64,000 nucleotides of DNA, taken from positions 2,783,281-2,847,280 of the forward strand of contig NZ_CP102577.1 in NCBI RefSeq assembly GCF_042231735.1, written 5' to 3'. This document shows, one piece after another, positions 3,575-55,054 of this stretch. A program made the translations under genes and the position numbers. The notes under the pieces are model-generated. The model searched no databases. It was not told where the DNA came from and saw only the letters and a program-made list of their open reading frames with translations. Source of the DNA: Corallococcus exercitus. Lineage in GTDB: Bacteria; Myxococcota; Myxococcia; Myxococcales; Myxococcaceae. Each line of letters begins with the position of its first letter. Positions within the stretch are counted from its first letter, which is position 1.

Positions 3575-3588
3575 GGAACCCCCACGCC

Positions 3589-4353: not shown

Positions 4354-4881
4354 TCAGTTCGCGGACTGGATGGCGATGACCCGGACGTCGAAGTTGGCGG
4401 CGTCCTTGCGGATGCCATGGAGCCACGCCTCGCCCTGGCCGAACATCACGCCCTGTTCGTTGACGAAGAGGTCCGCGTAACGCTGCCGGGTGATGACCTT
4501 GGCGATGGCCGGGGTGACGATGGCGTCGTAATGCCTCACGAACGCCGCGCCGTCGGGCAGCTTCACCCTCCTGCCGCCGATGTTCGCGGTGAAGGGGTAC
4601 GCCACCAGGGCCGCGACCGCCTTCGCGTCGCGCGCGGCCACGGCCCTCTGGAACGACGCGAAGGTCTGCGCATACTTCGCGGGCTCACCGAGGACACCCT
4701 GGATGCGCGCGTTGACCGCGGCGATGTCTTCAGCGGTCCCGGCATCTGGAGGCACGGCGACGAGGTTGGGTGCGGCCGGCGGCGCGGTGGACCGTGGGGA
4801 AGCCCCTGGCGGATCCGTGCGTGGGCAGGCCGTCGAGGACACGAGGACGACGGCGGCAAGCCGCGGAGGTTTCGTCTGCAT
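4354..4881 (-). CDS. secreted/lipoprotein of unknown function
   Basis: N-terminal signal (MQTKPPRLAAVVLVSSTAC) with a lipobox-like STAC. 175 aa with high GC3. Confidence 0.55.
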   Translation of the reverse strand: MQTKPPRLAAVVLVSSTACPRTDPPGASPRSTAPPAAPNLVAVPPDAGTAEDIAAVNARIQGVLGEPAKYAQTFASFQRAVAARDAKAVAALVAYPFTANIGGRRVKLPDGAAFVRHYDAIVTPAIAKVITRQRYADLFVNEQGVMFGQGEAWLHGIRKDAANFDVRVIAIQSAN

Positions 4882-39691: not shown

Positions 39692-39708
39692 CCCCGGGGG
39701 CTTTCCGC

Positions 39709-40176
39709 TCAGGACAGGTTGGCGTAGCGCAGGTAGAGGGCGCCCAGGCACACGGCGCCGTAGAGGGGAATCTCCGCCGTCTCCGTCCAGGGCTGCTGCT
39801 TCATCACCGCGCCCCAGACGTGCACCGCCGTCATGATGCCGCCAATGAGGCCGATGAGCTCGAAGATGACCAGGTGGCTCTTGGGGTCCGGGATGAACTG
39901 CACCACCGCGATGATGACGGACAGCGCCAGGCCTCCCAGGCAGCGCGCGAAGTAGACCGTCAAGTCGTTGTTGCCCGTGGGCAGCTCCCACCCGAACCAG
40001 CGCGCCCAGCGCAGCGGCACGAACAGCAACGGCAGCGCGTAGACGACCGCGAAGACCGAGGTGGAGACCGCGAGGAACCAGCTGGCCAGCGGATAGTCGG
40101 GGTTGATCATGATGGCGGACGAGGCAAGGGCACCGGGCGTCCTGCTGCCGGGCGCACCCTGCCCCACGCTGTCCAT
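39709..40176 (-). CDS. small integral membrane protein (3-4 TM helices)
   Basis: Hydrophobic helices. The start may be MINPDY at about 40110. Confidence 0.45.
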   Translation of the reverse strand: MDSVGQGAPGSRTPGALASSAIMINPDYPLASWFLAVSTSVFAVVYALPLLFVPLRWARWFGWELPTGNNDLTVYFARCLGGLALSVIIAVVQFIPDPKSHLVIFELIGLIGGIMTAVHVWGAVMKQQPWTETAEIPLYGAVCLGALYLRYANLS

Positions 40177-40243
40177 CCTAGAATCTTTTCCCTCCCCGTG
40201 GGGCGCCTTCCCCCCACCCGGCCCCCGTCAGCCCGGCTGCCGG

Positions 40244-40774
40244 CTAGCGGGTGGCGGCCAGGAGGAACTCGGCCACCCGCTCCAGGGAGGTGGTGCGCTC
40301 GGCTTCCGCCGGGAAGCGCCGGAAGGCCTCCGGGGGCCCGTGCAGGATGAGCGGCTTGCCATAGCGCAGCGCCAGGACGGCCTCCGCCGCGGTGCCCGCC
40401 CCTCCGGGTAGCGCGACCAGGGCGTGCGGCGTCAGCACGTTGATGTGGTTGCGGCTCATCGGGTCCGTGCCCTGCTCCCCGCTGAGCGGCAGGTGCGTGT
40501 AGATGGGGATTTCGATATCCGTGTTCGGGTAGCCGGGCCGGGGCTGGTACCGGCCATCCGCCCCGACAGTGCCGGGGATGATGCCGATGGCCGCCCCCCG
40601 CCGCCCCTCCACCTGGACGAAGGCCCCCGCCGCGACGCTCATGACGCCCCCGCCCGCGCCCGTCAGCAGGTCGAAGCCCGCCTCGGCAATCCACCGCGCC
40701 AGGGGGACGACCCACTCCTCGTGGGCCTCCGTGCCGGAGCCGAACACTCCGATGATGCGGCGGTGTCTGCGCAT
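40244..40774 (-). CDS. LOG-family (TIGR00725-like) Rossmann-fold protein
   Basis: GxGxxG (IGVFGSGT) and the PGGxGTxxE motif (LPGGAGTAAEAV) typical of LOG/YvdD-like proteins. Confidence 0.7.
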   Translation of the reverse strand: MRRHRRIIGVFGSGTEAHEEWVVPLARWIAEAGFDLLTGAGGGVMSVAAGAFVQVEGRRGAAIGIIPGTVGADGRYQPRPGYPNTDIEIPIYTHLPLSGEQGTDPMSRNHINVLTPHALVALPGGAGTAAEAVLALRYGKPLILHGPPEAFRRFPAEAERTTSLERVAEFLLAATR

Positions 40775-41017
40775 GACTGCGTCCTCCCCGAAAAACTGGA
40801 ACTACGTGAGCCCCTGTTCCATGCGAATCCCCGGCCAACGCCGCAAGGGCTCACGGACCGGCGTGCGGCCCGGCTCCCGTCCACCCGTGGAAGGTGCGCG
40901 GCGCGAGCGTCGCCTGGCCGTCGCTTGTCTCCTCCCGGAGCGCGAGGCCCTCCCGCACGACCCGTGATGTCGGACCCCTCCTCTACCTTCGTTCGCGAGT
41001 GAGCGAGGAGGCCGCCC

Positions 41018-41320
41018 ATGTTCGACGCCTGTGGAGGTTGTGAGCGCCGTGGCACCGCCGGAGAGGTGTTCGACTGGTGCGCGCACTGCGAGTTGTCCCT
41101 GTGTCCCGGCTGCCTCCAGCGCGGCTGCTGCGGCAGCGTGCCCGCGGACTCCGGGCGGGGCGCGCCCAGGGAGCTGCCCGAGCCGCCTCCCGAGCGCGAG
41201 CCCCTGCCGGAGGACTTCGGCGGCCGCTGCTGCACGCACGCCCGCGCGGTGGCGTGCTCCTGCGCCTTCCACTGGGTCTGCGTGCGCCACGGCGACCTGC
41301 ACGTGGGCACCCACGACTGA
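41018..41320 (+). CDS. small Cys-rich protein (putative zinc-ribbon / B-box-like)
   Basis: 100 aa with about 14 Cys in paired CxxC arrangements (CGGC, CAHC, CPGC, CC). Strong RBS (GAGGAGG) 6 nt upstream of the ATG. Convergent with the kinase gene. Confidence 0.5.
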   Translation: MFDACGGCERRGTAGEVFDWCAHCELSLCPGCLQRGCCGSVPADSGRGAPRELPEPPPEREPLPEDFGGRCCTHARAVACSCAFHWVCVRHGDLHVGTHD

Positions 41321-41414
41321 GGACGTGAAGCCTCACCCCTGTGTGGGCGTTGACACACCGGACCGGAAGGAGGCCCCGTGGTGGCGGCCCCCGGCCCGTG
41401 TCATTCCGTCCGGC

Positions 41415-44400
41415 TCAGGGCACGTCCAGCGCGACGCCCTGTCCCGGCACGGCCATCACCCAGCGGACGACGTCCGGCTTGCCGCCGCAGGTGACGCGCA
41501 CCTCGAACTCACGCCCCGCGGGCATGGGGCTGGCGAGCGGCGTCTGGCCCTGGAGCACCTGCGAGCCCAGCGCCACGCGGCAGCCCTGGGCACCGGTGAC
41601 GCTGAGCGTGCCCCGGGCATCCGCCTGGGGCGCGGCGTCCGCGAGCGTGCGCAGGTCGATGTGCTCCGACTTCGGCACCTTGCCGAAGCGGTGCAGCTTG
41701 CCCTCCACGGCCGTGGAGACGAGCCAGCCGGAGGGGTCCTCCGGCAGGGCGTTGCTGCCTTCCAGCAGCACGCCGGACACGTAGACGCGCTCGCCCTCCT
41801 GGGCGTTGCGCACCTCCACGCCGCCCTTGGGCAGCAGGAACACCAGCGCGAGCCCCGCGAGCACCAGGCCCACGCCCCCCACGACGAGCCCCTTGCGCTG
41901 GCCGGACGTCAGCCCCTTCCCCGTCGCGTCGGCGGCGGGCACCTGGGCCGCGGGGGCGGCCACGGCGTGGACGGGCGGAGGAGGCGCGGCCACGGGAGCC
42001 GCCGGAGGGCGCACGGGCGCGGCCACGGGCGGCGGCGGCGCGGCCACGGGCGGCGGCGGCGAGGGGTGGTTCCCTCCATAGGCCGCGTGCGTGCCCGTCT
42101 GCGGCGGGTGGGCACTTCCCTGCGGCGGGGCCGCGTATTGCGCGTGGGTGCCCCCGTGCTGCGGATGGGCGGCCACGGGGGGAGGCGCCACGGCGGCCAC
42201 GGGGGGAGGCGGCGGGGCCGAGGTCAGGGGCGCCACGGAGGGCACCGACACCGACGGACGCGCGGGCGCCTGCGGCGGAGGCCCCACGCGCGTGGGCACG
42301 TTGGCGGCGGCCGCCGGGCGCACCGCGGTGGGCGGCGGCAGCGGTGACGCGGGCGGCGGCGCGGCCGGGCGCGACGGACGGGGCGCGGGCGCGGCGGCCA
42401 CGGGCGGGGAGGCCACCGGGGGCGCGGCGACGGGAGGACGTGTCGGATCCGAGGTGACGGAGACGACCTCGGTGCCGCGCTCGGCGGCCTCCGGCGGGGA
42501 GGCCACCGGGGGCGGCTCCATCCGGGGCATGCTGCCGGAACCGCCGCGCACGGGCGGACGGGACAGGTCCGACGGGGCGCGCATGTCGCTGCCGGAGCCC
42601 GTGCCCGGGGCGCGCGAGTGCGAGCCCGTCCCCGGCATCAGCGCCCGGGGGTTGGAGCCCGTGCCCGAGCCGGCGATGGACGACGGCGCGTACTCGGAGA
42701 GCCGGTCGCCCAGCGCCTCCTTGAAGAACTGCGCCACCGACGCGGGCGACGAGGACAGCCGGTGGTGCGCGATGACGGCTTCAATCTCCTCGCGCATCGC
42801 CGCCGCGGAGGGCGTGCGGCGCGCCGGGTCCTTCACCAGCGCGCGCAGGATGAGGTCCGACACGTCCTGCGGGATGTGGGGCCGCAGCTGCGAGGGCACC
42901 GGCGCGGGCTCGCGCACGATGGCCGCGAGCGTGGCCGCGTCGTGGTCGCGGCGGAACGGCAGCTGGCCGGTGAGCAGCTCGAAGAGCACCACGCCCAGCG
43001 CGAACACGTCGTTGCGCCAGTCCAGCGGACGGCCGCTGGCGGCCTCCGGGGAGAGGTACGAAATCTTCCCCTTGATGACGCCCGCCTGCGTCTGCTCCTC
43101 GCCCTGCACCTTGGCGATGCCGAAGTCCGACAGCTTGATGGCGCCGTCCAGCGACACCAGCACGTTGTGGGGGCTGACGTCGCGGTGCACCACCGGGTGC
43201 GCGGTGCCGGACGGGTCCACGTAGCTGTGCGCGTAGTGCAGGCCCGCGGCGACCTCCGCCACGATGCGCAGCGCGTGCTCCAAGGGCAGCGCCATGCCCT
43301 TGCGGCGCAGCTCCGTGAGCAGGCGCTTCAGGTCCGGGCCGCGCACGTACTCCATCAGGATGTACGCCACGCCGTCCGTCACGCCCACGTCGAAGGTCTG
43401 GACGATGTTGGGGTGCGTGAGGCGCGCGTTGGCGCGGGCCTCCGCGAAGAGCATGTCGACGAACTCAGGATTCTCAGCGAACTGCGCGAGAATCTTCTTC
43501 ATCACGACGAACTTCTCGAAGCCCTTCACGCCCTGCTGCTTGGCGAGGAACACCTCCGCCATGCCGCCCTGCCCCAGCCGGCGGATGATCTGCAGCCGCG
43601 CGCTGCCGCCGTGCACGTCCGTGGGCGACGTGCCCCGGGCGCCGGGGTCCGCGTTGGTGGAGCCGAAGAGGTACTGGCTGAGCGCGCGCTGCTCCAGCGC
43701 CTCGATGTCGTCCAGCGGCTTGTCGGTGAGCGGCGTGCGCGCGAGCAGCCCCTGGAACTGCGCGAGCGCCGGAGCCCGGGCGCTGCCGCCGCAGACGGGG
43801 CACACGCGGTCCAGGGTGCCCTTGGCGCGCAGCACCTCCAGGTACTCGTTGGTCTGGATGCGCTGGTGGGTGACCTGGCCGCAGTTGCGGCAGTCGCACG
43901 GCAGCCACAGCGTGGCCAGCTTCGCCGGCAGCGCCTTGGTGGACTTCGCCAGCACGCCCAGCAGCGGCGGCGGCACGCGGCAGAGCACCACCTGGGCGCC
44001 CTGCGACGCCACCTCCAGCACCTGTTCGATGCGCGGCAGCGCCTCCGGCTCCACCGTGCTCACGTGGCAGCAGTCGAACGCGACGCGCCCCTCCAGGCCG
44101 GACGCCAGCCGGCGCACGTTGAGGTCGCCCTTGAGCGTGCTGGCCAGGGTGATGAAGGTGATGTCGTCCTGGACGATCTTCAGGTGCGAGGACAGCTCGG
44201 ACGGCTCGTTCGGGAGGCCCGCGCGCAGGTAGCGCAGCACGGCGGGGTCCACCGCGGAGAACTGCTGGCGGCGCGCGAAGTCGAAGAACTCCGTGGGCTC
44301 GTCCGCGAACTCCAGCGGCTGGGCGCACACGGGGCAGTGGTGCGGCGGGGCACCGCCCGCCTCCACGACCTTGCTCTCCTCCACCAGGCGGACCAGCCGC

Positions 44401-44753
44401 AGCCGGTCCTCCTTGCAGAAGCGGCACGAGTACGGCGCCAGCAGCGAGAGCACGCGCGCGACGCCCGCGAAGCCCTCCACCATGTTGAGCTGATCCACCA
44501 CCACCGGCGGTGCGTTGACGACGTACAGCCCCGACACGCCCTGCGGCGGGTGGCCGGCGAACTCAATCCACCGGCGGACCCCGAAGGAGCTGATGCGCTC
44601 CACCAGCCCCAGGTCCACCACCACCAGGCCCTGGAGGCCCTTGGACGCTGGCGAGAGGGGGAAGGTTTCGTCGATCACCCCGGCCACGCGCACGTGGGTC
44701 AGACTGCCCACGCGCAGGGAGGTGATGCTGGCATTGGAAGTTTGGCTCTCCAC
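41415..44753 (-). CDS. membrane Ser/Thr protein kinase with an N-terminal STAS (anti-sigma-factor antagonist-like) domain, two zinc-ribbon repeats, a Pro-rich linker, a TM helix and a C-terminal periplasmic domain
   Basis: The STAS pattern is VVVDLGLVERISSFGVRRW...LYVVNAPPVVVDQL. There are two Cx2C...Cx2C modules. Kinase motifs are a Gly loop (LGQGGMAEVF), the invariant Lys (VVMKKIL), a catalytic loop (HRDVSPHN), DFG and SPE. A TM helix (LVVGGVGLVLAGLALVFLL) separates the C-terminal domain. Confidence 0.8.
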   Translation of the reverse strand: MESQTSNASITSLRVGSLTHVRVAGVIDETFPLSPASKGLQGLVVVDLGLVERISSFGVRRWIEFAGHPPQGVSGLYVVNAPPVVVDQLNMVEGFAGVARVLSLLAPYSCRFCKEDRLRLVRLVEESKVVEAGGAPPHHCPVCAQPLEFADEPTEFFDFARRQQFSAVDPAVLRYLRAGLPNEPSELSSHLKIVQDDITFITLASTLKGDLNVRRLASGLEGRVAFDCCHVSTVEPEALPRIEQVLEVASQGAQVVLCRVPPPLLGVLAKSTKALPAKLATLWLPCDCRNCGQVTHQRIQTNEYLEVLRAKGTLDRVCPVCGGSARAPALAQFQGLLARTPLTDKPLDDIEALEQRALSQYLFGSTNADPGARGTSPTDVHGGSARLQIIRRLGQGGMAEVFLAKQQGVKGFEKFVVMKKILAQFAENPEFVDMLFAEARANARLTHPNIVQTFDVGVTDGVAYILMEYVRGPDLKRLLTELRRKGMALPLEHALRIVAEVAAGLHYAHSYVDPSGTAHPVVHRDVSPHNVLVSLDGAIKLSDFGIAKVQGEEQTQAGVIKGKISYLSPEAASGRPLDWRNDVFALGVVLFELLTGQLPFRRDHDAATLAAIVREPAPVPSQLRPHIPQDVSDLILRALVKDPARRTPSAAAMREEIEAVIAHHRLSSSPASVAQFFKEALGDRLSEYAPSSIAGSGTGSNPRALMPGTGSHSRAPGTGSGSDMRAPSDLSRPPVRGGSGSMPRMEPPPVASPPEAAERGTEVVSVTSDPTRPPVAAPPVASPPVAAAPAPRPSRPAAPPPASPLPPPTAVRPAAAANVPTRVGPPPQAPARPSVSVPSVAPLTSAPPPPPVAAVAPPPVAAHPQHGGTHAQYAAPPQGSAHPPQTGTHAAYGGNHPSPPPPVAAPPPPVAAPVRPPAAPVAAPPPPVHAVAAPAAQVPAADATGKGLTSGQRKGLVVGGVGLVLAGLALVFLLPKGGVEVRNAQEGERVYVSGVLLEGSNALPEDPSGWLVSTAVEGKLHRFGKVPKSEHIDLRTLADAAPQADARGTLSVTGAQGCRVALGSQVLQGQTPLASPMPAGREFEVRVTCGGKPDVVRWVMAVPGQGVALDVP
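41950..42215 (-). repeat. in-frame tandem nucleotide repeats encoding a Pro/Ala/Val-rich linker of the kinase
   Basis: A perfect 21-bp tandem repeat (gcggccacgggcggcggcggc, twice, at 42019-42060) and near-repeats (ggccacggggggaggcg, twice, around 42171-42211). Confidence 0.7.
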
Positions 44754-44757
44754 CCGC

Positions 44758-45603
44758 CTACCCTCGTTCCAGACAGAACAGCAGCGACTTGGGCTGCGCG
44801 GCCCGGCGGCGCGCGTCCCCCAGGTCCACCGCGCAGGCGAACTGGGTCCGCTTCCCCGGAGTCACCCGCACCGCGACCGCGTCGCTGTGCTCCAGGATGC
44901 GCCGCAGACCCAGGCCCGCGCCACCACCCGAAGCATCCACCTGCGCCTTCTCACCCCACGCCTTCACCACCCGCACCAGCGGTGACACCGACAGGCGGCC
45001 GAAGCGATCCGTCGCCTCCAGCCAGGCCCGGCCGTCCGCCACCGCCCAGGACAGCAGGCAGCGATCCTCCTCCGCCACCGACTGCACCTGTCCGCGCCGG
45101 TGGGCGTACTTCGGCTCGCCGCCCGCGTCCACCGGCGCGTCGAGCAGTGCGTTCACACCAATCTCATGGACGACATCCGCCACCCGGCTGGCCGCCGCCT
45201 TGGAGCCGCCGGCCTGGAGGACGCCTTCCGCCGCGCGCTCCCCCGCCGCCGTCACCTCCGCGACACTGCCCAGCCACGCCACCGACGTGGCGGCTTCCCG
45301 GGGAATCATGGGCTCGCCGCGCAGGAGCGCGCCGAGCAGCCGCGCCTCCCAGGCGGACGGCTGGCCGCCCTCACCGCGCGTGGCCAGGAGCAGCGCCGGG
45401 GGCTGCCGCTCCAGGAGCGCCGCGTGGGCGGGGGTGAACCGCCCGTCGAACAGCACCAGGTGCGGCGCCGCGTCGTCACCGCGCCCCAAAAGGACGCCGT
45501 CCCGGGCCAGCACCCCGGAGGCCTTCTCCAGCGCCTCCGGCGTGAGCGTCGTGTCCGGCGTCAACTTCAGGGGGGCATCCTTCACGGCGGCGACGGTATC
45601 CAC
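44758..45603 (-). CDS. two-domain protein with a C-terminal GHKL ATPase resembling RsbW/SpoIIAB (anti-sigma factor / protein serine kinase)
   Basis: N-box-like (VHEIGVNALLDA), D/G1-like (VADGRAWL), G2 (SGGGAGLGLRRIL) and a following beta strand (AVAVRVTPGKRTQFACAV), in the same order as RsbW. 4 nt from the kinase gene. Confidence 0.5.
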   Translation of the reverse strand: MDTVAAVKDAPLKLTPDTTLTPEALEKASGVLARDGVLLGRGDDAAPHLVLFDGRFTPAHAALLERQPPALLLATRGEGGQPSAWEARLLGALLRGEPMIPREAATSVAWLGSVAEVTAAGERAAEGVLQAGGSKAAASRVADVVHEIGVNALLDAPVDAGGEPKYAHRRGQVQSVAEEDRCLLSWAVADGRAWLEATDRFGRLSVSPLVRVVKAWGEKAQVDASGGGAGLGLRRILEHSDAVAVRVTPGKRTQFACAVDLGDARRRAAQPKSLLFCLERG

Positions 45604-45609
45604 AGCGCT

Positions 45610-48213
45610 CTAATAATGCAGTCGAACTTCGGTGAAGACGCCCAGCGGGGGGGCGGGGAAGCCGTGGGACTCCTCGTACTTCGCGTTGAAGAGGTTGGTG
45701 CCCAGCAGGGACACGGCCACGCGCTCGTGGACGTTGAAGCCCACGCGCGCGGTCGCGGTGATGTAGCTGGGCAGCTTCACGCGGGTGGTGGTGCCGGCGA
45801 TCTCATCCACCACGAAGCCCGGGTCGAAGCGCGGGCCCACGAACAGGCCGTACAGCTCCACGAAGGCGAACTTGCCGATGTTGGTGCGGCCGCGCAGGTA
45901 GACGCGGTGGGTGGGCGCGTAGTCCAGCGGGTAGCTGGCCCCGCCGCCCACGGGCAGCGCCTCGGCGTCCAGGAACTGGTAGGCCACGTCGAAGGACGAG
46001 TTGAGGGCCGGCACCTGCGCCGCGGCCTCCGCCTCGAAGCCCGCCACGCGCGCGTCGCCCAGGTTCTTGAACTGGGACGTGGAGCCGAAGAGGAGCTCCT
46101 GGTTGATGAAGTTGCGGGCGCGGTTGTAGAAGCCGGTGCCCGTCAGGCGCACCTTGCGGTCGAACGGCCAGAAGTCCACCGCCGCCTCCACCGTGTCCAG
46201 CGTCTCCGCGCGCAGGGCCGGGTTGCCCAGGAGCGTCGCCGCGTACATCTGCTGGTTGATGGCCAGCTCCGCCAGCGTGGGCGCGCGGAAGGCGCGGCCG
46301 TAGTTGGTGCGCAGCGTGAGCAGCTCCGGGATGGCGTGGAACACGACGCTGGCGCGCGGGGACACCTGGTCCGTCTTCGCCTCCCAGACCTTGGAGGGGA
46401 TCTGGTAGTTGTCGTAGCGGGCGCCCGCGCCCACCACCAGCCGCTCCGTGACGCGGTACTCGGCGTCCACGAAGCCGCCCAGGATGGTCTGCTTCGTGTC
46501 GTCCAGGGTCAGGCCGGGCAGCACGTTCTGGTTGTTCACCTGGTCGGCCTTCACGTCGCCGCCCACGGTGACGGACAGCTTGTCCAGGGAGAACAGCGCG
46601 CGCGCCTCACCGCCCAGGCGGCTGCGCTTGCCCAGCGTGTCCTCGAGCGCGCCGGTGATTTCGTTCTCCAGCGTCACGTTGCGGCGCTTGAAGAACGTGT
46701 AGGCCTGGGCGAACACGCGCACGTTGTCCGTCACCTGCTGATCCAGCTGCAGGGCGGCGTTCAGGTTCTGGACGTGCTCGTTGTCCTGCGCGGTGTAGTG
46801 GCAGCGGCCGCAGTTGCCCACGGTGGAGATGTTCTGGCCACCGGGCCGGCCGATGTTGCCGTCGGTGAAGTCCGCGTCCAGGGCGAGGGGCCCCACGCGG
46901 ACCTTGCCGTTCACCTGGTGCACCAGCGAGTCCTCGTTGGTGTCCGTCTGGCCCAGCTGCTGGTTGTTGAAGAGCTGCGGGCCGTCCGAGCCGAAGCCGT
47001 AGTAGCCGAGCAGCGCCTCCACCGGACCGCCGCGGCCGGCGACGTTGGTCTGCAGGCGCCACGTCTTGTCCTGGCCCGCGAGGATGCGCGCGTCGGCGCC
47101 CACGTTCTGGCCCTTGGCGATGAGGTCCGCGGGCTGGCGCTCGATGATGTTGATGACGCCGCTGAAGGCGTTGGAGCCGTAGAGCGACGAACCCGGGCCG
47201 CGGATGACCTCCACCTGCTTGAGGTTGGTCATCGGCGTCGTCTCATCCGCGTAGAACTGGCCCGTCCAGGGGTCCGTCAGCGGACGGCCGTCCTTGAGGA
47301 GCAGCAGGCGGTTGGACAGGTAGTTGGAGCCCAGGCCGCGCGCGCTCACCGCCGCCTTGCGCATGGAGCCCCGGCGGCACTCCATGCCGGGGAAGTACTG
47401 GATGGCCTCGCAGAGCGAGAACTGGCCGGTGCCCTCCAGCTCCTCCGCCGGAATCCAGGACACCGTGAGGGGCACGTCGGAGATGCGCTGGCTGCGCTTG
47501 GACGCCGTGGTGACGACGGCCTCGCTCAGCGCCAGGTTGATGTTCTTCTCCAGGTCGTCGCCGCCGCCCAGGTCCGGGCCGTCCAGGCCGGAGAGGCTGG
47601 AGGGCGGAGGCAGCGCGCGGTCCGTGGTGGGCTCCGTGAAGGGCGCGCGGTCCGGGACGTTGTCGGCCGTCCGGGGCTGCGACGACGGCAGCACCGCGCC
47701 CGTGCCCAGCGCCGGCGCGGGCGGCGGGTTGGACGGGATGTCGGTCATCAGCGGCCCGTCATAGGGCGACGTCGAGGCAGGCGTCCCGGGCGAGGCCACG
47801 GGCAGCGGATCCGCCACGGACGGGCCGACGCCAGGGCCGGCCACCGGGGCGGGCGGCGCGGGCGGCGGCTCGGTGGCGAGCACCGGCTCCTGCGGGGCGG
47901 GCGCGTCCGCGGGAATGGGCTCCGGCTCCACCGGCGGAGGCGGCGTCTTCGCGCCCCGGCGCGTCTTCGCCGTGCGCGGAGGCTTCGCCCCCGGAGTGGC
48001 GGCCTTGGCGCCCGGCGGGGTGGCCGCGCGCTTGCGGGAGGCCTTCGTCCGCGTCTTGGGAGCAGGCTCCTGGGCCTCCTGGGCCTGGGCCGTCTCCACC
48101 GCGAACAGCGACAGCGCGCAGACCACCAGCGTGAGGCATGCGCGCGCGCCCAGCCGGCCGGCAAACCCCTTCACCGCGCTGGTGCGCGGCCCACCGTACT
48201 CAGTCGAGTCCAT
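45610..48213 (-). CDS. TonB-dependent outer-membrane receptor with a long disordered N-terminal extension
   Basis: Signal peptide, then ~200 aa of Lys/Pro/Ala-rich low complexity. Plug domain (TonB-box-like ALSEAVVTTAS, RGPGSSLYGSNAFSGVINI) and a long beta-barrel. The start may be 48297. Confidence 0.8.
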   Translation of the reverse strand: MDSTEYGGPRTSAVKGFAGRLGARACLTLVVCALSLFAVETAQAQEAQEPAPKTRTKASRKRAATPPGAKAATPGAKPPRTAKTRRGAKTPPPPVEPEPIPADAPAPQEPVLATEPPPAPPAPVAGPGVGPSVADPLPVASPGTPASTSPYDGPLMTDIPSNPPPAPALGTGAVLPSSQPRTADNVPDRAPFTEPTTDRALPPPSSLSGLDGPDLGGGDDLEKNINLALSEAVVTTASKRSQRISDVPLTVSWIPAEELEGTGQFSLCEAIQYFPGMECRRGSMRKAAVSARGLGSNYLSNRLLLLKDGRPLTDPWTGQFYADETTPMTNLKQVEVIRGPGSSLYGSNAFSGVINIIERQPADLIAKGQNVGADARILAGQDKTWRLQTNVAGRGGPVEALLGYYGFGSDGPQLFNNQQLGQTDTNEDSLVHQVNGKVRVGPLALDADFTDGNIGRPGGQNISTVGNCGRCHYTAQDNEHVQNLNAALQLDQQVTDNVRVFAQAYTFFKRRNVTLENEITGALEDTLGKRSRLGGEARALFSLDKLSVTVGGDVKADQVNNQNVLPGLTLDDTKQTILGGFVDAEYRVTERLVVGAGARYDNYQIPSKVWEAKTDQVSPRASVVFHAIPELLTLRTNYGRAFRAPTLAELAINQQMYAATLLGNPALRAETLDTVEAAVDFWPFDRKVRLTGTGFYNRARNFINQELLFGSTSQFKNLGDARVAGFEAEAAAQVPALNSSFDVAYQFLDAEALPVGGGASYPLDYAPTHRVYLRGRTNIGKFAFVELYGLFVGPRFDPGFVVDEIAGTTTRVKLPSYITATARVGFNVHERVAVSLLGTNLFNAKYEESHGFPAPPLGVFTEVRLHY

Positions 48214-48447
48214 CGTTCTCAATTCCACGAGGGGAAGCAGGGATGTCCGCGGTCCGTGCGCCAGGATCCAGAGCCGGTGCGACTGGCAATCGTCCACAGG
48301 GGCGAGTTTCCGCCCCTGAACGGTGGCGTTCCGCTCGACTTCTCAAACTACCGCAATAACTCACCTAAGGCCAAGTCGTGGCTGTCGATCCAGGCAAATC
48401 ACGCGAACGGCGGCGGGAGCGCCGCGCGCGGATCAGCCACGGCGCAA

Positions 48448-49374
48448 TCAGTCATCCGGCTGTTCAGCGGACACGGCCAGGTCGTCCGCGAACGGCGGCA
48501 GCGCGGGACCCAGTGACTCGGACTGCACGAGCACGGGCGTCTCCACCCGCAGGTCGGGGGCGTCCGCGAGGACGGGCTGGCGGCGTGGGGGGCCCTGGGT
48601 GACGAGCTTGCGGAAGTCCTCGAACTCGCGGCCCTGGATGCGGGCGAAGGCGTCGAACGGGGCGACCACACCCACGGAGGACAGGGACTGGGACAACGCG
48701 TCCCCCCCGCCCTTCAGGTCCACCAGCACGGCGCCCGGCACCCGGACGCTCTTGAAGAGCACCCGCATGTCCCTGGGCACGTGCGCCACCGGCACGAGCG
48801 CGGCCTCCGCGCCCTTCGCCTCCAGCATCTTCACCGCCGACTCCACGTTGGGCACCGGCACCAGCTTGAAGTGCTTCTGGGCATCCAGGTCGCCGCCCAG
48901 CACGACGTGGGAGACGAACTTCGGATCCGCGGGGCCCGCGCCCTTCACCAGCGCCATGCGCTTGCCGGCGAGGTCCTTCACGGTGCCCTTCTGGGTGGAG
49001 ATGATGGCCCAGCGCTGCTGCGTCTCACCGGCGCGCGGCGCGTACGCCACGGGCTGCGCCTTGGCGCCCAGCTGCACCGCGGCCCAGCCGTCCACCACGG
49101 CGAAGTCGATCTGCCCCTCCCCCACCGCCTTGGAGAAGTCCTCGTAGCGGCCGAAGCTCTTGGCGCCCACGGGGCGGCCCAGGCTGGCCTCCAGCTTCTG
49201 GGCCAGGGCCTCCGCGTACTGGAAGCGCTCCTGGCCGTCCGACAGCGTGGTGGCGAGGAACACGCCCAGCGTGGCCTTCTTCGGCGCGGCGGACGCGGGA
49301 CGGGAGATGACAACGGAGAACAGCACGGCGGCGAGCAGGAGGCTCCCCCGCGCGACAAGGGATGGCGTCTTCAC
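48448..49374 (-). CDS. periplasmic PhnD/SsuA-like substrate-binding protein
   Basis: Signal peptide and type-2 periplasmic-binding fold features. It overlaps the TPR gene stop by 4 nt. Confidence 0.65.
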   Translation of the reverse strand: MKTPSLVARGSLLLAAVLFSVVISRPASAAPKKATLGVFLATTLSDGQERFQYAEALAQKLEASLGRPVGAKSFGRYEDFSKAVGEGQIDFAVVDGWAAVQLGAKAQPVAYAPRAGETQQRWAIISTQKGTVKDLAGKRMALVKGAGPADPKFVSHVVLGGDLDAQKHFKLVPVPNVESAVKMLEAKGAEAALVPVAHVPRDMRVLFKSVRVPGAVLVDLKGGGDALSQSLSSVGVVAPFDAFARIQGREFEDFRKLVTQGPPRRQPVLADAPDLRVETPVLVQSESLGPALPPFADDLAVSAEQPDD

Positions 49375-51896
49375 GGCGTCTCCTCCGCGACCCCGGTGGC
49401 CGGCGTGACGCCCTGTGCGTCACCCAGTCCATGGAGGCCCTGCAGGCGGTCCTTCCATTCACGCACCTGGGCGGCGCGGGTGCCCGCGCCGGAGGCCAGG
49501 TAGCGGCGCCAGGCCTCCACGGCCTCGGCGGGTTCATGCCGGCGCTCCTGCGCGTCGATGCCCAGGTTGAGCGAGGCGACGGGCACGGCGGTCTCCAGGC
49601 GCTTCCACGTCGCGAGCGCGGAGGCCGCTTCGCCCTGGCGCCAGTCCACGCACGCCAGGTTGTGCTGCACCAGCGCGTCGTCGGGCGTCGCGGCGAGCGC
49701 GGCCTTCAGCGCCTTCTCCGATGCCCTCATGTTGCCGGAGGCGTACGCGAGCGCCGCCTCGCGGCGCAGCAGCGCGCCGGTGAGGTGGCCCATCCACTTC
49801 GGCTGTCCGGGCATGGGCTTCTTCTGCGCGGCGGTGAGCAGCTTGCGCGCGGGCGCGACCTTGCCCTGGCGGTAGAGCACCCACGCGTCCGCGAGCGCGC
49901 GCGTGTTGGGCCACGCCCACTCCGGCGCCGGGGTGAGCGAGCGCTTGAGGCCGGCGGAGGCCTCCGCGAACCGCCCTTCTTCCGCGCGCGTGAGTGCCCG
50001 GGCGAAGGTGGCCAGCTTCGCCAGGTCCGTGCGCTTGCCGGTGCCCAGGCGGTCCACCGCGTCCAGGTCCCGGTTCGCCGCGGCCGCGTCGCCGGCCTCC
50101 AGCTTCGCCAGGGCCCGGCGCACCAGCACGCGGGGCAGGTTCGCCTCCGCCACCTTCGAGGCCGTCTTGGAGGGCCCCGCGTCCGTCAGCCGCTGCACGG
50201 CGGCGTCCACCTGGCCCAGCTCCACCTCCGCGAGCGCGGCGCCCGCGGACGCCTCCGCGCGCTGATCCGGCTCCTGCGTGGCCTCGCCGGACTGGGTGAA
50301 GGCGGCGAGCGCTCCTTGCGCGTCGCCACTGCCCAGCCGCGCGTAGCCCAGGAGCAGGTGCTCGCGCCAGGTCGCGCCCGGCAGCGTCACCGCGCCCTCC
50401 AGCACCTTGCGGGCCTCCGCGTACTGGTGGCTGTCCAGCAGCGCCGCGCCCAGGCGGCGGGCCATGGGGACGGAGCGGTCCAGGTCGTAGGCGCGGCGCA
50501 GGTCGCGCACGGCGTCGTCCAGGCGCTGCGTGCCGGCGCGGTCGCGTGCGCGGTGCGCCAGCGCCCGGGCCAGCCACTGCTTCGCGCCGGGGTGGCCGGG
50601 TTCGACCTGGAGCGCGCTGCCGTAGTCCTCGATGGCCTGGTCCCACTGGCCGGTGGCGAAGTGATCCGCGCCCAGCAGCATCCAGCCCAGCGCCTGGCGC
50701 GGGGCCATCTCCACCACGCGCCGGTGCACCTCCACCGCTCGCTGGTAGCGGCCGGCGCGGCGGTTGACGGAGCCCAGCGTCGCCCACAGCTCCAGGCTGC
50801 CGCCGCCCGTCTTCACCGCGGACTCCAGGAACTGGATGGCCTCCTCGTGGCGCGCCTGCGCCTGGAGCGCCTTGCCCACGGCGATCTGCCCCAGGAGCAG
50901 GCCCGGCTGCAGCTCCAGCACCTTGCGGAACTCCGCCTCCGCCTGCGCGGGCTGCTTCTGCGCGAGCCGCACGTCACCCAGCAAGAGGTGCGCGGCGGGC
51001 GTCGAGCCCAGCTTCATGAGCGCGGTGGCCTGGAGGTCCGCGCGCGGCACGTCGCCCGCGGCGAGGTACTGGCGCGCGAGGCGCTCCTTGGGCTCCGCCG
51101 CCTGCGGGTACTTCGTCACCAGCCGCTCCAGCAGCGCGCGGGCCTCCGGCACGCGGCCCTCCAGCTCCAGCACGGCGGAGAGGCCGATCTGCGCGGTCGC
51201 GGACTCGGCGCGGCCGGCCTGCGCCTTCTCGAAGGAGGCGCGCGCGGCGACGGCGTCGCGGCGGATGAGGTGCGCCTTGCCCAGCAGCTCGTGGATCTGG
51301 AAGTCGTTGCCCGCGAGCTTCTCCGGGCGCAGCACCAGGTAGCGCTGCAGCCGCGTCACGGCGCGGTTCCCGTCCTGGACGTAGAGGTAGTAGCTGGCCA
51401 GGTAGTAGTGGACGATGAGGTGGTCGGGCTGATCCGCGGCGGCCACCTGCTCCAGCACCGGCACGGCCTCCGGGAAGCGGCGCAGCTTGAAGTACGCCGT
51501 GCCCAGCGGGTACGCGAGCGACAGCTCCGACGGGTTCTGCGCGAACACCGGCTGGAGGCGGGCCACCGTGCGCTGGAAGTCCTGGAGCGCGTTGGCGGCG
51601 CTGCCCAGGCCCGCGGCGGCGTACACGGACTGCGGCTCCTGCGCGAGCGACTGCTCGAAGAGCTGGAGCGCCTTCTTGAACTTCTCCTCTGCCTCCTGCT
51701 TGTCGCCCTTGGAGAGGGCGGCGTTGGCGGACACAAGGGCCTGTTCGCCCTGCACCGTCATGCGCTGCGCCTCGGTGGCGGGCGGCGGGCGGAACTGGGC
51801 GAGCGCCGTCGGCGGGCCGGCCAGGGTGGCCAGCAGGACGAGCGCGGTGGAGACGCGGCGCGGGGAGCGGATGAATGGGCGCATGCGGTTCGTCAC
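49371..51896 (-). CDS. periplasmic TPR-repeat protein (841 aa)
   Basis: Signal peptide, then ~20 TPR-like helical repeats. It overlaps the upstream phosphatase gene by 4 nt. Confidence 0.75.
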   Translation of the reverse strand: MTNRMRPFIRSPRRVSTALVLLATLAGPPTALAQFRPPPATEAQRMTVQGEQALVSANAALSKGDKQEAEEKFKKALQLFEQSLAQEPQSVYAAAGLGSAANALQDFQRTVARLQPVFAQNPSELSLAYPLGTAYFKLRRFPEAVPVLEQVAAADQPDHLIVHYYLASYYLYVQDGNRAVTRLQRYLVLRPEKLAGNDFQIHELLGKAHLIRRDAVAARASFEKAQAGRAESATAQIGLSAVLELEGRVPEARALLERLVTKYPQAAEPKERLARQYLAAGDVPRADLQATALMKLGSTPAAHLLLGDVRLAQKQPAQAEAEFRKVLELQPGLLLGQIAVGKALQAQARHEEAIQFLESAVKTGGGSLELWATLGSVNRRAGRYQRAVEVHRRVVEMAPRQALGWMLLGADHFATGQWDQAIEDYGSALQVEPGHPGAKQWLARALAHRARDRAGTQRLDDAVRDLRRAYDLDRSVPMARRLGAALLDSHQYAEARKVLEGAVTLPGATWREHLLLGYARLGSGDAQGALAAFTQSGEATQEPDQRAEASAGAALAEVELGQVDAAVQRLTDAGPSKTASKVAEANLPRVLVRRALAKLEAGDAAAANRDLDAVDRLGTGKRTDLAKLATFARALTRAEEGRFAEASAGLKRSLTPAPEWAWPNTRALADAWVLYRQGKVAPARKLLTAAQKKPMPGQPKWMGHLTGALLRREAALAYASGNMRASEKALKAALAATPDDALVQHNLACVDWRQGEAASALATWKRLETAVPVASLNLGIDAQERRHEPAEAVEAWRRYLASGAGTRAAQVREWKDRLQGLHGLGDAQGVTPATGVAEETP

Positions 51897-53710
51897 GGCG
51901 TGGGGGCGGGGCTGAATTCGGCGACGATGACGGTGATGTCGTCGCGCTGGGGCTGGCCGGCGCTGTACGCGCGCACGTCCGCGAGGAGCGCGTCGCGAAG
52001 GGCGTCGGCGGGAAGGTGCGCGTGGGTCTGGAGCGCGGCGGCCAGGCGCTGCGTGCCGTAGAGGCGGTTGGCGCCGTCGCGCGCCTCGGTGAGGCCGTCC
52101 GTGTACCAGACGATGATGTCACCGGGGCTCAGCTGCGCCTGGCGCGACGTGAACTGCGAGGCGACGTTCGCGCCCAGCAGCGGGCCGCGCGCCGGCAGCG
52201 ACGCCATCTGCCGCGTGTTCCGGTTGTAGATGGCCGCCGCCGGGTGGGCGCCCGCCGCGTAGTCGATGCTGCCGCTGTACACGTCGATGACCGCGAGCGC
52301 GCTGGACATCTGGTGCTCGCCGCGGCCCACGTTGGCCAGCGTCACGTTGAGCGCGGTGATGAGCATCTGCGCGTGCACCTGCGACGGCTCGCGCAGCGTC
52401 ATCGCGGAGGCGAAGCCGCTGGTGGCGCTGGTGGCGACCAGCGACGTGGACAGGCCGTGGCCCGTCACGTCTCCAATGCCAATGACGACGCGCCGGTCGT
52501 CCAGCGCGGCGCGGAACCACCAGTCGCCGCCGCACGCGTCCGCGGGCACCACCAGCCCGGCGAGCCGCAGCGGGCCCACCGTCACGGCCTCTCGGCCCGG
52601 CAGGAGCGTCTCCTGCACGGTGCGCGCGAGCGACACCTCGCGCTCCAGCTGCGCCTTGGCGCGCACGTCCTCCAGGAGGACCTTGATGCGCTCCGCCATG
52701 TGGTTGAACACCACGCCCAGCGTCGTCACTTCACGGCCCGCGCCCGGCGCCGTGCCCGCGCGGGCGCCCAGGTCACCGGCGGCCAGCTGCATCACGCGGT
52801 GGGTGAGCACGCCCAGCGGCTTGGTGATGCGGCGGCTCTGGAAGGCGGCCAGCACGCCGGCCAGCACCACGAAGCCCACGCCCAGGCCCACGATGCGCAG
52901 CGTGTTGGCGCGCACCGCGGCGCGGTTGGTCTCCTCCAGTTCGTGCAGCTGCTTCTGCAGGTCCTCCAGCGAGTAGCTGATGACGACCACGCCCTTGCCG
53001 CCCTGCGAGCCGTAGTCGAGCGGCTCCTGGAACTCGAAGACGGGCTGGCCGTTGAAGAAGGCGCTGGCCCAGCGGCGCTCCGCGGTGCGGCCCCCGGAGG
53101 ACTCCCCCAGCTTGGCGGCCGGGTCGCTGTCCGCGACGAGCTGCCCGTCCGCGTCGAACATCTGCACGCGCAGGATGTTGCGGTTGTCCGCGATGATGGA
53201 GCGCGCGACCTCCGTGAGGAACGCGTAGTTGTTGTCGCGCAGGCTGGTGGCGGAGGTGAGCGCCAGCGTGTGGCTCACCGTCTGGCCCAGCTCGCGCGCC
53301 TGGGACTGCAGCCGCTGCGTGAACCGGTCCGACGTCGCGGTGAGCTGCGCCTCCGTCGTCTTCGCCGACAGCGCGGCCAGGAGGCCCACGATGATGATGA
53401 CCAGCGCGCCCGTGGTGAGCAGCAGCAGCTGATCCAACCGCAGCCCACGGATGGCCGCCACGTTGGGCAGCTCTCCGGCCTCCATGGGCGCGATGACCGT
53501 GCTCGTGGGCTCCGCGGCCGGCAGCCCCAGCGCCCCGGTCAGCCGGGTGGCCGTGTTCTCCCCGCGCAGGGCGGTGAGGTCCCGGGAGTGGGTGCCCGTG
53601 TACTCCGGCGGAGGGGGCGGGGTGCCAGGCCCTGCGTCGTGGGAATCTCCGGACGCATCGGGGGAATCTGGCACGGGGTCGAGGCGCGTGTTCGTACGGG
53701 ACAAAGGCAA
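51893..53710 (-). CDS. membrane sensor PP2C/SpoIIE-family protein Ser/Thr phosphatase (RsbU-like) with a periplasmic domain and HAMP
   Basis: Two TM helices flank a ~200-aa periplasmic domain, followed by a HAMP-like linker. The PP2C motifs are present (GGDWW, GDVTGHG, VWYTDGLTEA, DDITV). Confidence 0.8.
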   Translation of the reverse strand: MPLSRTNTRLDPVPDSPDASGDSHDAGPGTPPPPPEYTGTHSRDLTALRGENTATRLTGALGLPAAEPTSTVIAPMEAGELPNVAAIRGLRLDQLLLLTTGALVIIIVGLLAALSAKTTEAQLTATSDRFTQRLQSQARELGQTVSHTLALTSATSLRDNNYAFLTEVARSIIADNRNILRVQMFDADGQLVADSDPAAKLGESSGGRTAERRWASAFFNGQPVFEFQEPLDYGSQGGKGVVVISYSLEDLQKQLHELEETNRAAVRANTLRIVGLGVGFVVLAGVLAAFQSRRITKPLGVLTHRVMQLAAGDLGARAGTAPGAGREVTTLGVVFNHMAERIKVLLEDVRAKAQLEREVSLARTVQETLLPGREAVTVGPLRLAGLVVPADACGGDWWFRAALDDRRVVIGIGDVTGHGLSTSLVATSATSGFASAMTLREPSQVHAQMLITALNVTLANVGRGEHQMSSALAVIDVYSGSIDYAAGAHPAAAIYNRNTRQMASLPARGPLLGANVASQFTSRQAQLSPGDIIVWYTDGLTEARDGANRLYGTQRLAAALQTHAHLPADALRDALLADVRAYSAGQPQRDDITVIVAEFSPAPTP

Positions 53711-54046
53711 ACCTGGGAGAGCCCGCGGGGGAACGCGGTCGGGACGGCGCGGACTCTATCGCACTTCCTGATTGACGCGAGGAGTCCACCTGTCGGGATT
53801 TCCCTCGGGAGCGCCCCCTCCTCCGGCCCCTCAGCGGCCGTGCGATCAGCCTCCACCGGGGGTGTTCCCACCCGCGGGAAGCAGCACGTCACAGGGGGAT
53901 GGATGAGTTCCGCTCATTGCCGCGTCGCGCCACCCGGGGGCCCAAACGGTGACGGCGAACACCCGTGACATCAGCGTCCTTGAGTCGGGAGGCCGCATCC
54001 GGAGTATAGGGGCGTCCCTTTCCTTTCCCTTCGAGGTCCTCCGCCC

Positions 54047-55054
54047 GTGTCCCGGCCCCGGTTGATCAAAGAAAACTCCGCGCCGCTTTCGCTCGCCCGA
54101 GAGCAGCTCATCCGCATCCACGACCTGATGGTGAAGGCGCGAGTCCTGGAGGAGCGCCTCATCCAGATGTACAAGCAGGGCCACGGCTACTTCTGGATTG
54201 GCGGCCCCGGTGAGGAGGCGTTCAACGTCCCCCTGGGCATGCTCATGAAGGTGGGCGAGGGCCCGGCCTACGACTACCTGCACGCGCACTACCGCCAGTC
54301 CGCGACGCTCCTGGCCATGGGCGAGGAGCCCATCGGGGCGCTGCGGCAGATGAAGAACACGGCCACGGACCCCTACTCCGGCGGCCGCAACTTCGCGGGC
54401 CACTTCAGCCGGCGCTCGAAGAACATCGCCCCGGTCACCTCCCCCATCGAGGTGCAGTACGCCATCGCGCCGGGCACGGCCATGGCCCAGAAGCGCCACG
54501 GCGGCGAAGGCATCACCATCGTCACGGGCGGCGACGCGGGCACGGCCGAGGGCGATTTCGCCAGCGGGCTCATCTGGAGCAGCCGCCCGGCGAACCCGCT
54601 GCCCATCCTGATCATCGTCACCAACAACAAGTGGGGCATCAGCACCACGTCGGACGGCCAGCACGGCGAGACGAACATCGCGGACCGCGCGCGCGCCTTC
54701 AACATCCCGGCGAAGACCATCAACGGCAATGATCCGGTGGAGTCCTACCAGGAGCTGCAGGCCGCGATGGACTACGTGCGCAAGGAGCGCAAGCCGTACT
54801 TCATCGAGGCGCGCGTGTCGCGCCTGTACGGGCACTCGTCCGCGTCCGGCGCCAACTTCGTGAACGAGGAGCAGGACTGCCTGCGCCTGTTCGAGGCGCG
54901 GCTGGAGCAGGAGGGCGTCCTCGACCGCAAGCAGATGGACGAGGTGCGCAACCGCTACACGGAGGAGCTGGCCGCCGCGGCGCGCACCGTGCGTGACGAG
55001 CCGCAGCCCTCTGGCGACTCCATCTGGGAACACATCTACGCGGAGAAGAAATAA
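54047..55054 (+). CDS. 2-oxoacid dehydrogenase E1 component alpha subunit (pyruvate / branched-chain keto-acid dehydrogenase E1alpha)
   Basis: TPP-binding motif (GGDAGTAEGDFASGL...IIVTNNKWGIST). It may correspond to a two-gene esg/bkd-type locus (inference). Confidence 0.85.
   Translation: MSRPRLIKENSAPLSLAREQLIRIHDLMVKARVLEERLIQMYKQGHGYFWIGGPGEEAFNVPLGMLMKVGEGPAYDYLHAHYRQSATLLAMGEEPIGALRQMKNTATDPYSGGRNFAGHFSRRSKNIAPVTSPIEVQYAIAPGTAMAQKRHGGEGITIVTGGDAGTAEGDFASGLIWSSRPANPLPILIIVTNNKWGISTTSDGQHGETNIADRARAFNIPAKTINGNDPVESYQELQAAMDYVRKERKPYFIEARVSRLYGHSSASGANFVNEEQDCLRLFEARLEQEGVLDRKQMDEVRNRYTEELAAAARTVRDEPQPSGDSIWEHIYAEKK

Follow-up and report, generated by a model that had tools for sequence, protein, structure and literature searches.

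The window analyzed here is a stretch of 64,000 nucleotides (nt) from Corallococcus exercitus (contig NZ_CP102577.1), and the gene under study encodes a TonB-dependent receptor on its minus strand. High GC content at third codon positions (GC3) marks six co-oriented genes around and including it; the other five encode a membrane-bound phosphatase, a tetratricopeptide repeat (TPR) protein, a periplasmic binding protein, a 281-amino-acid (aa) protein with a GHKL Ser-kinase fold, and a transmembrane Hanks Ser/Thr kinase (Table 1). A sequence-only reading of the window had described the receptor as carrying a ∼200-residue Lys/Pro/Ala-rich, disordered N-terminal extension and as leading a kinase operon. 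Within this extension, a conserved proline-rich motif was found beside the TonB box, and the receptor gene proved to be linked to the same signaling genes in most of the Myxococcota loci recovered, suggesting that it might act as a transducer.

Table 1. Features of the receptor gene and its cluster in window coordinates (AF2, AlphaFold2; TM, transmembrane)
Feature	Coordinates	Strand	Basis
Receptor coding sequence (TonB-dependent receptor, 867 aa, stop included)	45610..48213	minus	Pfam, ortholog starts
Signal peptide, residues 1-44, predicted cleavage AQA/Q	48082..48213	minus	Read from sequence; conserved M[HD]ST start
Basic block, residues 45-97, with weak PGAK repeat	47923..48081	minus	Composition, charge in orthologs
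Acidic Pro-rich variable spacer, residues 98-182 (P 31%, net -6)	47668..47922	minus	Composition, pLDDT <50
Proline-rich linear motif region, residues 183-218, NVPDRAPFTEPTTDRALPPPSSLSGLDGPD...	47560..47667	minus	Alignments
Short helix (residues 219-230) and TonB box EAVVTTAS (231-238)	47500..47559	minus	AF2; BtuB/CirA model alignments
Plug (∼residues 239-360) and β-barrel (361-867)	45613..47499	minus	Pfam, AF2, Foldseek
Near-invariant GNCGRCHYT (CxxCH), residues 466-474, predicted extracellular loop L3	46792..46818	minus	Homolog counts, AF2
Conserved promoter-like block ACTTGGCC-N18-TAGTTT	48345..48376	minus	Alignment of 16 upstream regions
Membrane-bound phosphatase: two TM segments, Cache-like periplasmic domain, HAMP, SpoIIE/PP2C	51893..53710	minus	Pfam, NCBIfam
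Periplasmic TPR protein, 841 aa, signal peptide, net basic	49371..51896	minus	Pfam, sequence reading
PhnD-like (Phosphonate-bd) periplasmic binding protein, signal peptide	48448..49374	minus	Pfam 2.7e-11
281-aa protein: N-terminal α/β domain and SpoIIAB/RsbW/SiaB-type GHKL Ser-kinase fold	44758..45603	minus	AF2, Foldseek
1112-aa kinase: STAS-Zn ribbon ×2, Hanks Ser/Thr kinase, Pro/Ala linker, TM, periplasmic C-terminal domain of ∼130 aa	41415..44753	minus	Pfam Pkinase 4e-42

Start codon and identity of the receptor gene

The long open reading frame (ORF) of the interval, 45610..48297, is GTG-initiated and had been taken as the gene in the sequence-only reading. The frame is indeed open there on the minus strand, but the true start is almost certainly the ATG at 48213 (MDSTEYGG...) rather than the GTG at 48297, which gives a protein of 867 instead of 895 aa. 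This assignment follows from the alignments, in which M[HD]ST forms the first residues of every ortholog; from the conservation across genera, in an alignment of 16 upstream regions, of GAGAACGATG, the ten bases at this ATG; and from the divergence of the DNA 5′ of it, where indels are not multiples of three. The annotated starts of several orthologs from Myxococcus and related genera (P0015, P0008, P0012, P0014, and P0017) lie ∼58 codons 5′ of the conserved MHST and are probably over-extended calls; the M. xanthus ortholog, annotated at 921 aa, is among them.

A TonB-dependent receptor from C. interemptor is 95% identical to the window receptor. Since the adjoining 281-aa protein is the ortholog of MXAN_4558, we identify the receptor as the ortholog of M. 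xanthus MXAN_4559, which has been reported from outer-membrane and outer-membrane vesicle fractions. AF2 placed a helix at residues 24 to 36, inside the predicted signal peptide. We also considered whether a conserved Cys in the signal peptide marks a lipoprotein and rejected this reading: the preceding residues are unlike a lipobox, and the hydrophobic stretch runs on past the Cys.

Receptor core and TonB box

Pfam recognized the plug (PF07715; E value of 1.7e-18; 67.5 bits versus a cut-off of 23.9; residues 244 to 353) and the barrel (TonB_dep_Rec_b-barrel, PF00593; E value of 6.9e-41). In an AF2 model based on a 73-sequence alignment, both were confident, with predicted local distance difference test (pLDDT) values mostly >85 in the core. 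Foldseek matched this core to BtuB, Cir, ChuA, and PirA with E values of ∼1e-31 and template modeling (TM) scores of 0.7 to 0.87 (0.87 normalized to BtuB), so that the identification as a TonB-dependent receptor held.

The sequence-only reading had seen no standard TonB box region in the N-terminal part. Directly N-terminal of the plug, however, ∼185 residues from the mature N terminus, lies the sequence S-E-A-V-V-T-T-A (residues 230 to 237), and it is at receptor residues 230 to 231 that the BtuB and CirA equivalog models start to align. AF2 predicted a helix (220 to 230) and a strand (233 to 235) around this site; V234 is invariant in an 18-sequence alignment, and A237 is at least 90% conserved. 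EAVVTTA thus reads as a canonical Cir/BtuB-like TonB box. As judged from sequence and predicted structure, the receptor is a bona fide TonB-dependent transporter (TBDT) of the outer membrane, its predicted location resting on sequence reading and on the M. xanthus ortholog.

The receptor scored far under the cut-off of every NCBIfam equivalog and subfamily model (the best, TonB-hemin, reached 176 bits versus 317), and a substrate is therefore not transferable from these families. Significance is attached to a His between the FRAP and NPxL boxes; the FRAP/NPxL-like segment of the receptor, read from the sequence, has no His there, and no substrate was assigned on this basis.

A translated, disordered N-terminal extension

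The extension between the signal peptide and the TonB box comprises ∼185 aa (residues 45 to 230), close to the length given in the sequence-only reading. A basic block is followed by an acidic Pro-rich spacer, a proline-rich motif, and a short helix, after which come the TonB box and the plug. Over residues 47 to 228, the composition is P 24.7%, A 15.4%, K 4.4%, and R 4.9%; the proline content compares with 4.5% in the core (binomial P = 8e-21), and the extension is poor in bulky hydrophobic residues (P = 3e-8). The extension is therefore rich in Pro and Ala, as had been described, but Lys-rich only in its basic block (residues 47 to 97: K 14%, R 12%, net charge of +11), the remainder being acidic. 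AF2 assigned pLDDT values of <50 and no secondary structure to residues 37 to 218, in agreement with the disorder suspected earlier. A tandem-repeat scan of the low-complexity region found weak two-copy repeats only (9 to 21 nt, including one of 21 nt ×2), and an origin from a tandem-repeat array was ruled out on these grounds.

Several lines of evidence indicate that the extension is translated. The only signal peptide lies 5′ of it, its in-frame GC3 is 0.94, and in 19 orthologs the frame is open from M[HD]ST, with many in-frame indels. For residues 47 to 182, the ratio of nonsynonymous to synonymous substitution rates (dN/dS) was 0.23 to 0.37 in five of six close Corallococcus comparisons and 0.81 in the sixth. 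The sequence-only reading had itself raised the chance that the true start lies downstream, so that the extension would not be made at all, and several in-frame GTG and ATG codons inside the extension could serve such a start. An outer-membrane barrel requires a signal peptide, and none follows any of these codons; such an annotation artifact is also contradicted by the frame that stays open in 19/19 orthologs, the GC3, the dN/dS below 1 among close relatives, and the conserved GAGAACGATG start context; we regard it as scarcely credible. The mature N terminus is accordingly modeled as a translated, intrinsically disordered periplasmic extension.

No Pfam match in the extension was obtained for STN (PF07660, at E values up to 0.01) or CarboxypepD_reg (PF13620/PF13715), and AF2 gave no folded domain there, which bears out the earlier statement that it is not a FecA-type signaling domain. 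The sequence-only reading had also invoked TBDTs with N-terminal extensions that serve protein export and import in myxobacteria. Oar (MXAN_1450), an M. xanthus protein, resembles the window receptor in having, like SusC-type TBDTs, an N-terminal extension before the plug, and it is required for PopC secretion, so the extension described here might likewise handle a protein substrate. The extension of Oar, however, is a folded Pfam CarboxypepD_reg domain that is not needed for PopC secretion, whereas that of the window receptor is of disordered low complexity, bears a linear motif, and lacks this domain. The core, moreover, resembles the small-ligand transporters BtuB, Cir, and ChuA, and no candidate cargo gene lies in the cluster. 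The analogy does not carry over, and an Oar-like function appears very improbable. Published classifications of TBDT N termini distinguish none, CarboxypepD_reg, STN, and AMIN; a disordered extension with a linear motif is outside these classes, and a literature search found no disordered Lys/Pro N-terminal extension on a TBDT.

The length of the extension differs between lineages. In 56 long-extension orthologs (from Corallococcus, Myxococcus, Pyxidicoccus, Hyalangium, Stigmatella, and several metagenome-assembled genomes [MAGs]), the variable part is 90 to 187 aa long, with a mean charge of +7.4 over the first 40 mature residues and −5.8 over the rest. In orthologs from Archangium, Melittangium, and Vitiosangium, the variable stretch is only ∼25 to 60 residues long; a PKARK patch and the full motif are kept, and the genes sit in the same cluster. 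Since these orthologs nearly lack the long low-complexity part, it is not the essential signaling element. Its dN/dS (residues 47 to 182) is ∼0.8 to 1 between genera, compared with 0.05 to 0.15 for the plug, so its sequence is barely conserved, and the term N-terminal domain used in the sequence-only reading does not fit it. We infer that the low-complexity part is a lineage-specific spacer under selection for length and charge-block pattern rather than for sequence, one that would add reach to a system that apparently works without it in the Archangiaceae.

The charge pattern could also be explained by an anchor to the envelope, in which the basic block would bind an anionic surface (inner-membrane phospholipids, peptidoglycan, or a periplasmic polyanion) and the spacer would span the periplasm, positioning or immobilizing the receptor or bringing it near inner-membrane partners, like the Pro-rich rod of TonB. 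The consistently positive mature N terminus, followed by an acidic Pro-rich stretch of at least 100 residues, would suit this function, as would the short basic PKARK patch that persists in the short-extension orthologs, and VEPEPIP in the extension resembles the Glu-Pro/Lys-Pro spacer of Escherichia coli TonB. All of this is compositional, and an anchor leaves the conserved motif unexplained; in addition, the Archangiaceae lack the long block, and Pfam found no peptidoglycan- or lipid-binding domain in the receptor. We consider an anchor unlikely, although it could coexist with either a docking tether or simple ligand import, both of which are discussed below.

A conserved proline-rich motif beside the TonB box

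Sequence conservation in the extension is confined to its last part, an element of ∼25 to 30 residues beside the TonB box with the consensus [AS]PFxGPxxxRPLPPPSGLAGxD. In the 18-sequence alignment, P187, P191, F192, P195, and P204 are invariant; among 73 sequences, F192, P195, and P204 remain so, and at least 90% retain P187, P191, and R199, a conservation comparable to that of plug residues. The RPLPPPS core shows an apparent resemblance to class I SH3 ligands (RxLPPxP). The motif region and the C-terminal tail of the binding protein are acidic and would suit the TPR protein, whose net charge is positive (+5 to +18).

The motif occurs in all orthologs examined, down to ∼55 to 60% identity, and is degenerate in one locus of our genome scan (L049, 55%). 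Three paralogs (L048, L050, and L051; 48 to 51% identity) have neither the motif nor signaling neighbors, and they keep the helix and the TonB box. These distributions are good comparative evidence, confounded by the split between orthologs and paralogs, that the motif goes with the association of receptor and signaling genes.

Linkage of the receptor to signaling genes

A genome scan recovered 64 loci, 63 of them from Myxococcota. The order phosphatase, TPR protein, binding protein, receptor, and GHKL protein is identical at 40 loci, with the kinase next wherever the contig continues, and nine further loci on truncated contigs agree with the standard gene order. The genes are still linked where the first three are divergent from the last three (L040 and L054) and where the receptor comes first in the cluster (L049); L046 and L053 keep the receptor, GHKL protein, and kinase. 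This order of the last three genes is kept in every locus with enough flank. Across the recovered Myxococcota loci, the six-gene cluster is thus conserved as far as gene content and order reveal, which makes a good comparative case for a functional association between the receptor and the signaling genes.

In a distant Myxococcota MAG (locus L043, positions 40 to 4467), 19 nt separate the gene for a motif-bearing receptor from the next gene, which encodes a different Hanks kinase whose C terminus has PEGA domains. The partner-switch genes and the binding protein were undetected in the available flank (no STAS or GHKL partner). In this MAG, a gene for a di-heme cytochrome c peroxidase lies 1.5 kb beyond the PEGA-domain kinase.

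In the window, the gap between the receptor gene and the 281-aa gene is 6 nt, and that between the 281-aa gene and the kinase gene is 4 nt. The promoter-like block lies in the 234-bp intergenic region ∼130 nt 5′ of the receptor ATG and is common to Corallococcus, Myxococcus, Pyxidicoccus, and Hyalangium loci, which fits a receptor gene that leads a transcription unit. The kinase operon headed by the receptor that the sequence-only reading had proposed agrees with this block, the short gaps, and the conserved order; the set of partners proved larger, with the phosphatase, TPR protein, and binding protein encoded upstream.

Partner proteins encoded in the cluster

The phosphatase, the ortholog of MXAN_4562, matched Pfam SpoIIE (1.1e-38) and HAMP; its best NCBIfam match was SiaA (7e-25, under the equivalog cut-off). 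A published phosphatome analysis lists the MXAN_4562 type as the only SpoIIE-like phosphatase type in M. xanthus.

The GHKL protein that had been named as a neighbor in the sequence-only reading was recognized by fold rather than by sequence. Sequence searches with the 281-aa protein against Pfam and NCBIfam gave nothing, and a per-member Pfam scan gave one HATPase_c match at an E value of 0.12, so that structure prediction and Foldseek alone resolved its identity. The AF2 model (pLDDT of 87, predicted TM score of 0.88) matched SpoIIAB best (E value of 7e-6, probability of 1.0) and also SiaB, RsbW, and UsfX, and invariant residues (E147, N151, D199, G202, and G226 to G232) correspond to the N, G1, and G2 boxes of GHKL proteins. 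A match to L7/L12, obtained with a 20-sequence profile against PDB sequences, was dismissed as spurious. Unlike SpoIIAB and RsbW, the protein has an extra N-terminal α/β domain (∼residues 12 to 111) in which four strands alternate with helices.

The neighboring kinase also appears to be a STAS-kinase, as had been stated: STAS_2 was matched in 13/15 kinase orthologs and STAS in 10/15 (best E value, 5.9e-8), the STAS match of the window copy being sub-threshold (3.4e-4; 21 bits versus a cut-off of 29). A STAS profile run against PDB sequences found no STAS structure, only zinc-finger noise from the Cys pairs. In the kinase N terminus (43614 to 44753, minus strand), a ribbon of four invariant Cys residues comes after each STAS-like unit (C110/C113/C140/C143 and C288/C291/C318/C321). 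In the segment R-I-S-S-F-G, residues R53, I54, S56, and G58 never vary, and S55 and F57 show a conservation of at least 90%. Such a tandem of STAS domain and Zn ribbon fused to a Hanks kinase appears to be uncharacterized. The TM segment and the C-terminal domain were read from the sequence, and this domain looks PEGA-like by eye, with no confirmation from Pfam.

The binding protein carries a C-terminal tail of ∼50 residues beyond its fold (48448 to 48600, minus strand) that is kept across genera; it ends in P-D-D (P-D-E in one distant locus) and in most orthologs in E-Q-P-D-D. TPR domains often clamp acidic C termini. The binding protein also gave a weak NCBIfam match to the sterol-binding periplasmic protein BstB (E value of 2.7e-4, far below the cut-off), which probably reflects only the shared PhnD-like fold. 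Among the flanking ORFs of the window, scanned against Pfam, none belonged to a TonB, ExbBD, or ABC permease/ATPase family, and a Pfam scan of the neighboring ORFs found no sigma or anti-sigma family. A literature search found no functional study of MXAN_4557 to MXAN_4562.

Proposed role of the receptor

As predicted from domain and fold matches, the cluster encodes every component of a partner switch in the style of SiaABC/RsbUVW, here joined to a Hanks kinase and accompanied by four periplasmic components. A transducer-like role for the receptor is plausible, gene linkage being the only ground for transducer function. Our preferred reading, to which we assign a probability of roughly 0.4, is that the receptor is the outer-membrane input of an envelope-spanning pathway and that the motif on its tether docks to a cluster-encoded periplasmic protein. 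The receptor would take up or sense a ligand in a TonB-dependent manner, and the motif on the flexible tether would dock to its partner, for which the basic TPR protein and the PEGA-like C-terminal domain of the kinase are the best candidates. Receptor state or ligand arrival would thereby be coupled to the cytoplasmic partner switch, with the phosphatase and the SpoIIAB-like kinase acting against each other on the STAS domains, and the switch would set the output of the Hanks kinase. A bolder version makes the receptor a new type of TonB-dependent transducer, in which a short polyproline-type motif on a disordered tether is recognized in the periplasm, by a TPR scaffold or by a domain of the Hanks kinase, and drives a STAS/SpoIIAB-like/PP2C switch that gates the Ser/Thr kinase; taken as a whole, we consider this version doubtful.

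Several observations weigh against a docking tether. The motif is of low confidence and undocked in the AF2 monomer model, and its link to signaling neighbors follows phylogeny (orthologs versus paralogs). At three loci with the motif (L041, L044, and L045), the short flanks at hand hold no partner gene, and no indel in the TPR protein correlates with long- versus short-extension lineages. Pro/Ala-rich linkers are common in this genome, the kinase's own measuring ∼280 aa, and the gene linkage would be accounted for if the receptor simply imported a ligand of the binding protein, with the extension playing no part.

This last alternative is the main rival, which we rate as only slightly less probable than the docking tether. 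The receptor would serve only as an import gate, the orphan binding protein would present the ligand to the Cache/HAMP phosphatase, and the extension would have no signaling role; its low-complexity part would be a tolerated GC-driven expansion and its motif generic, serving for docking of a dedicated TonB paralog or chaperone or for exposure of the TonB box. The canonical TonB box and core agree with such a gate, as does the binding protein, which has no ABC partner nearby and would fit a sensor. The missing long part in Archangiaceae orthologs with the same cluster, the dN/dS of ∼0.8 to 1 between genera, and the other Pro/Ala linkers in the same operon likewise speak for an extension of little consequence. 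Against it stand the charge-block pattern and length kept in 56 orthologs of several genera and the dN/dS of 0.2 to 0.4 among most close relatives. The motif, moreover, is conserved like plug residues and is lost in exactly those paralogs that lack signaling neighbors, and at L043 the receptor adjoins a transmembrane Hanks kinase where the binding protein and partner-switch genes were undetected in the available flank.

To our knowledge, TonB-dependent receptors signal in one way only, from an STN domain through an anti-sigma factor to an extracytoplasmic function (ECF) sigma factor. If a disordered tether with its motif couples the receptor to the partner switch and Hanks kinase, surface signals would have a second path into the cytoplasm, and a connection would emerge between two extensive, mostly uncharacterized gene sets of myxobacteria, the many TBDTs and the ∼100 Ser/Thr kinases. 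The genetic tractability of M. xanthus makes the hypothesis directly testable. Should the extension be only a spacer, it would still illustrate cleanly how selection acts on length and charge pattern in a disordered region of the periplasm.

Comparison with known systems

As in FecA, FpvA, FoxA, and HasR, the TonB box of the window receptor is preceded by an additional periplasmic segment at the N terminus, and signaling proteins with periplasmic domains are encoded by genes linked to that of the receptor. In FecA-type transducers, this segment is a folded STN domain (∼70 to 80 aa) that makes contact with an anti-sigma factor of the FecR type and regulates an ECF sigma factor, whereas the window receptor has neither STN nor another folded domain, and its neighbors, where examined, provide a partner switch and a Hanks Ser/Thr kinase as linked output instead of a sigma/anti-sigma pair. 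The core shares the plug and barrel fold and the Cir-like TonB box with BtuB, Cir, ChuA/ShuA, and PirA but is only 13 to 20% identical to them among the Foldseek matches listed, and those proteins have no long N-terminal extension. As a charged, proline-rich, non-globular periplasmic segment, the extension is comparable to the proline-rich spacer of TonB; unlike that spacer, it is located on the outer-membrane partner, has its basic and acidic blocks in the opposite order, and contains no regular X-Pro repeat.

The cytoplasmic components recall RsbU/RsbV/RsbW, SpoIIE/SpoIIAA/SpoIIAB, and SiaABCD of Pseudomonas aeruginosa, with a HAMP-PP2C phosphatase, a GHKL kinase of SpoIIAB/SiaB type (by fold), and predicted STAS domains with a conserved Ser-Ser-x-Gly. 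In contrast to these systems, which control a sigma factor or a diguanylate cyclase, the STAS domain is duplicated and, together with the Zn ribbons, fused to a transmembrane Hanks kinase; the GHKL protein has its additional N-terminal domain, and the cluster includes a TBDT, a binding protein, and a TPR protein.

A CxxCH motif in a barrel loop

The CxxCH motif occurs in the context VGNCGRCHYTxxDxExV, and C[GA]RCH is present in 119/120 receptor homologs, as well as in all seven checked among distant orthologs and paralogs that lack the proline-rich motif. In the AF2 model, which is of low confidence there, it lies in a long loop between strands 443 to 455 and 478 to 493, which we read as extracellular loop 3. 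CxxCH is the signature of c-type heme attachment; in the receptor, it could instead be a disulfide or metal site. If the receptor is a transducer of a new type, the motif might mark an unusual ligand, metal, or heme site at its sensing face. A literature search found no report of CxxCH in a TBDT loop.

Upstream signals and flanking genes

A consensus sigma-70 scan predicted no promoter and missed the promoter-like block, and a sigma-54 reading of the upstream TTGGCC...TTGC was discarded for its wrong spacing. A terminator scan gave one weak terminator-like site, below shuffled expectation. A search of positions 40000 to 54500 for riboswitches and other known RNAs found nothing meaningful and thus provided no clue to the substrate. 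Directly downstream of the kinase gene (35390 to 40801, minus strand), the window encodes an SLOG/LDcluster4 protein and a 1533-aa adenylate/guanylate cyclase-AAA_16-TPR protein, and this pair recurs downstream of the cluster in six Corallococcus and Hyalangium-type loci (L003, L029, L034, L036, L038, and L061).

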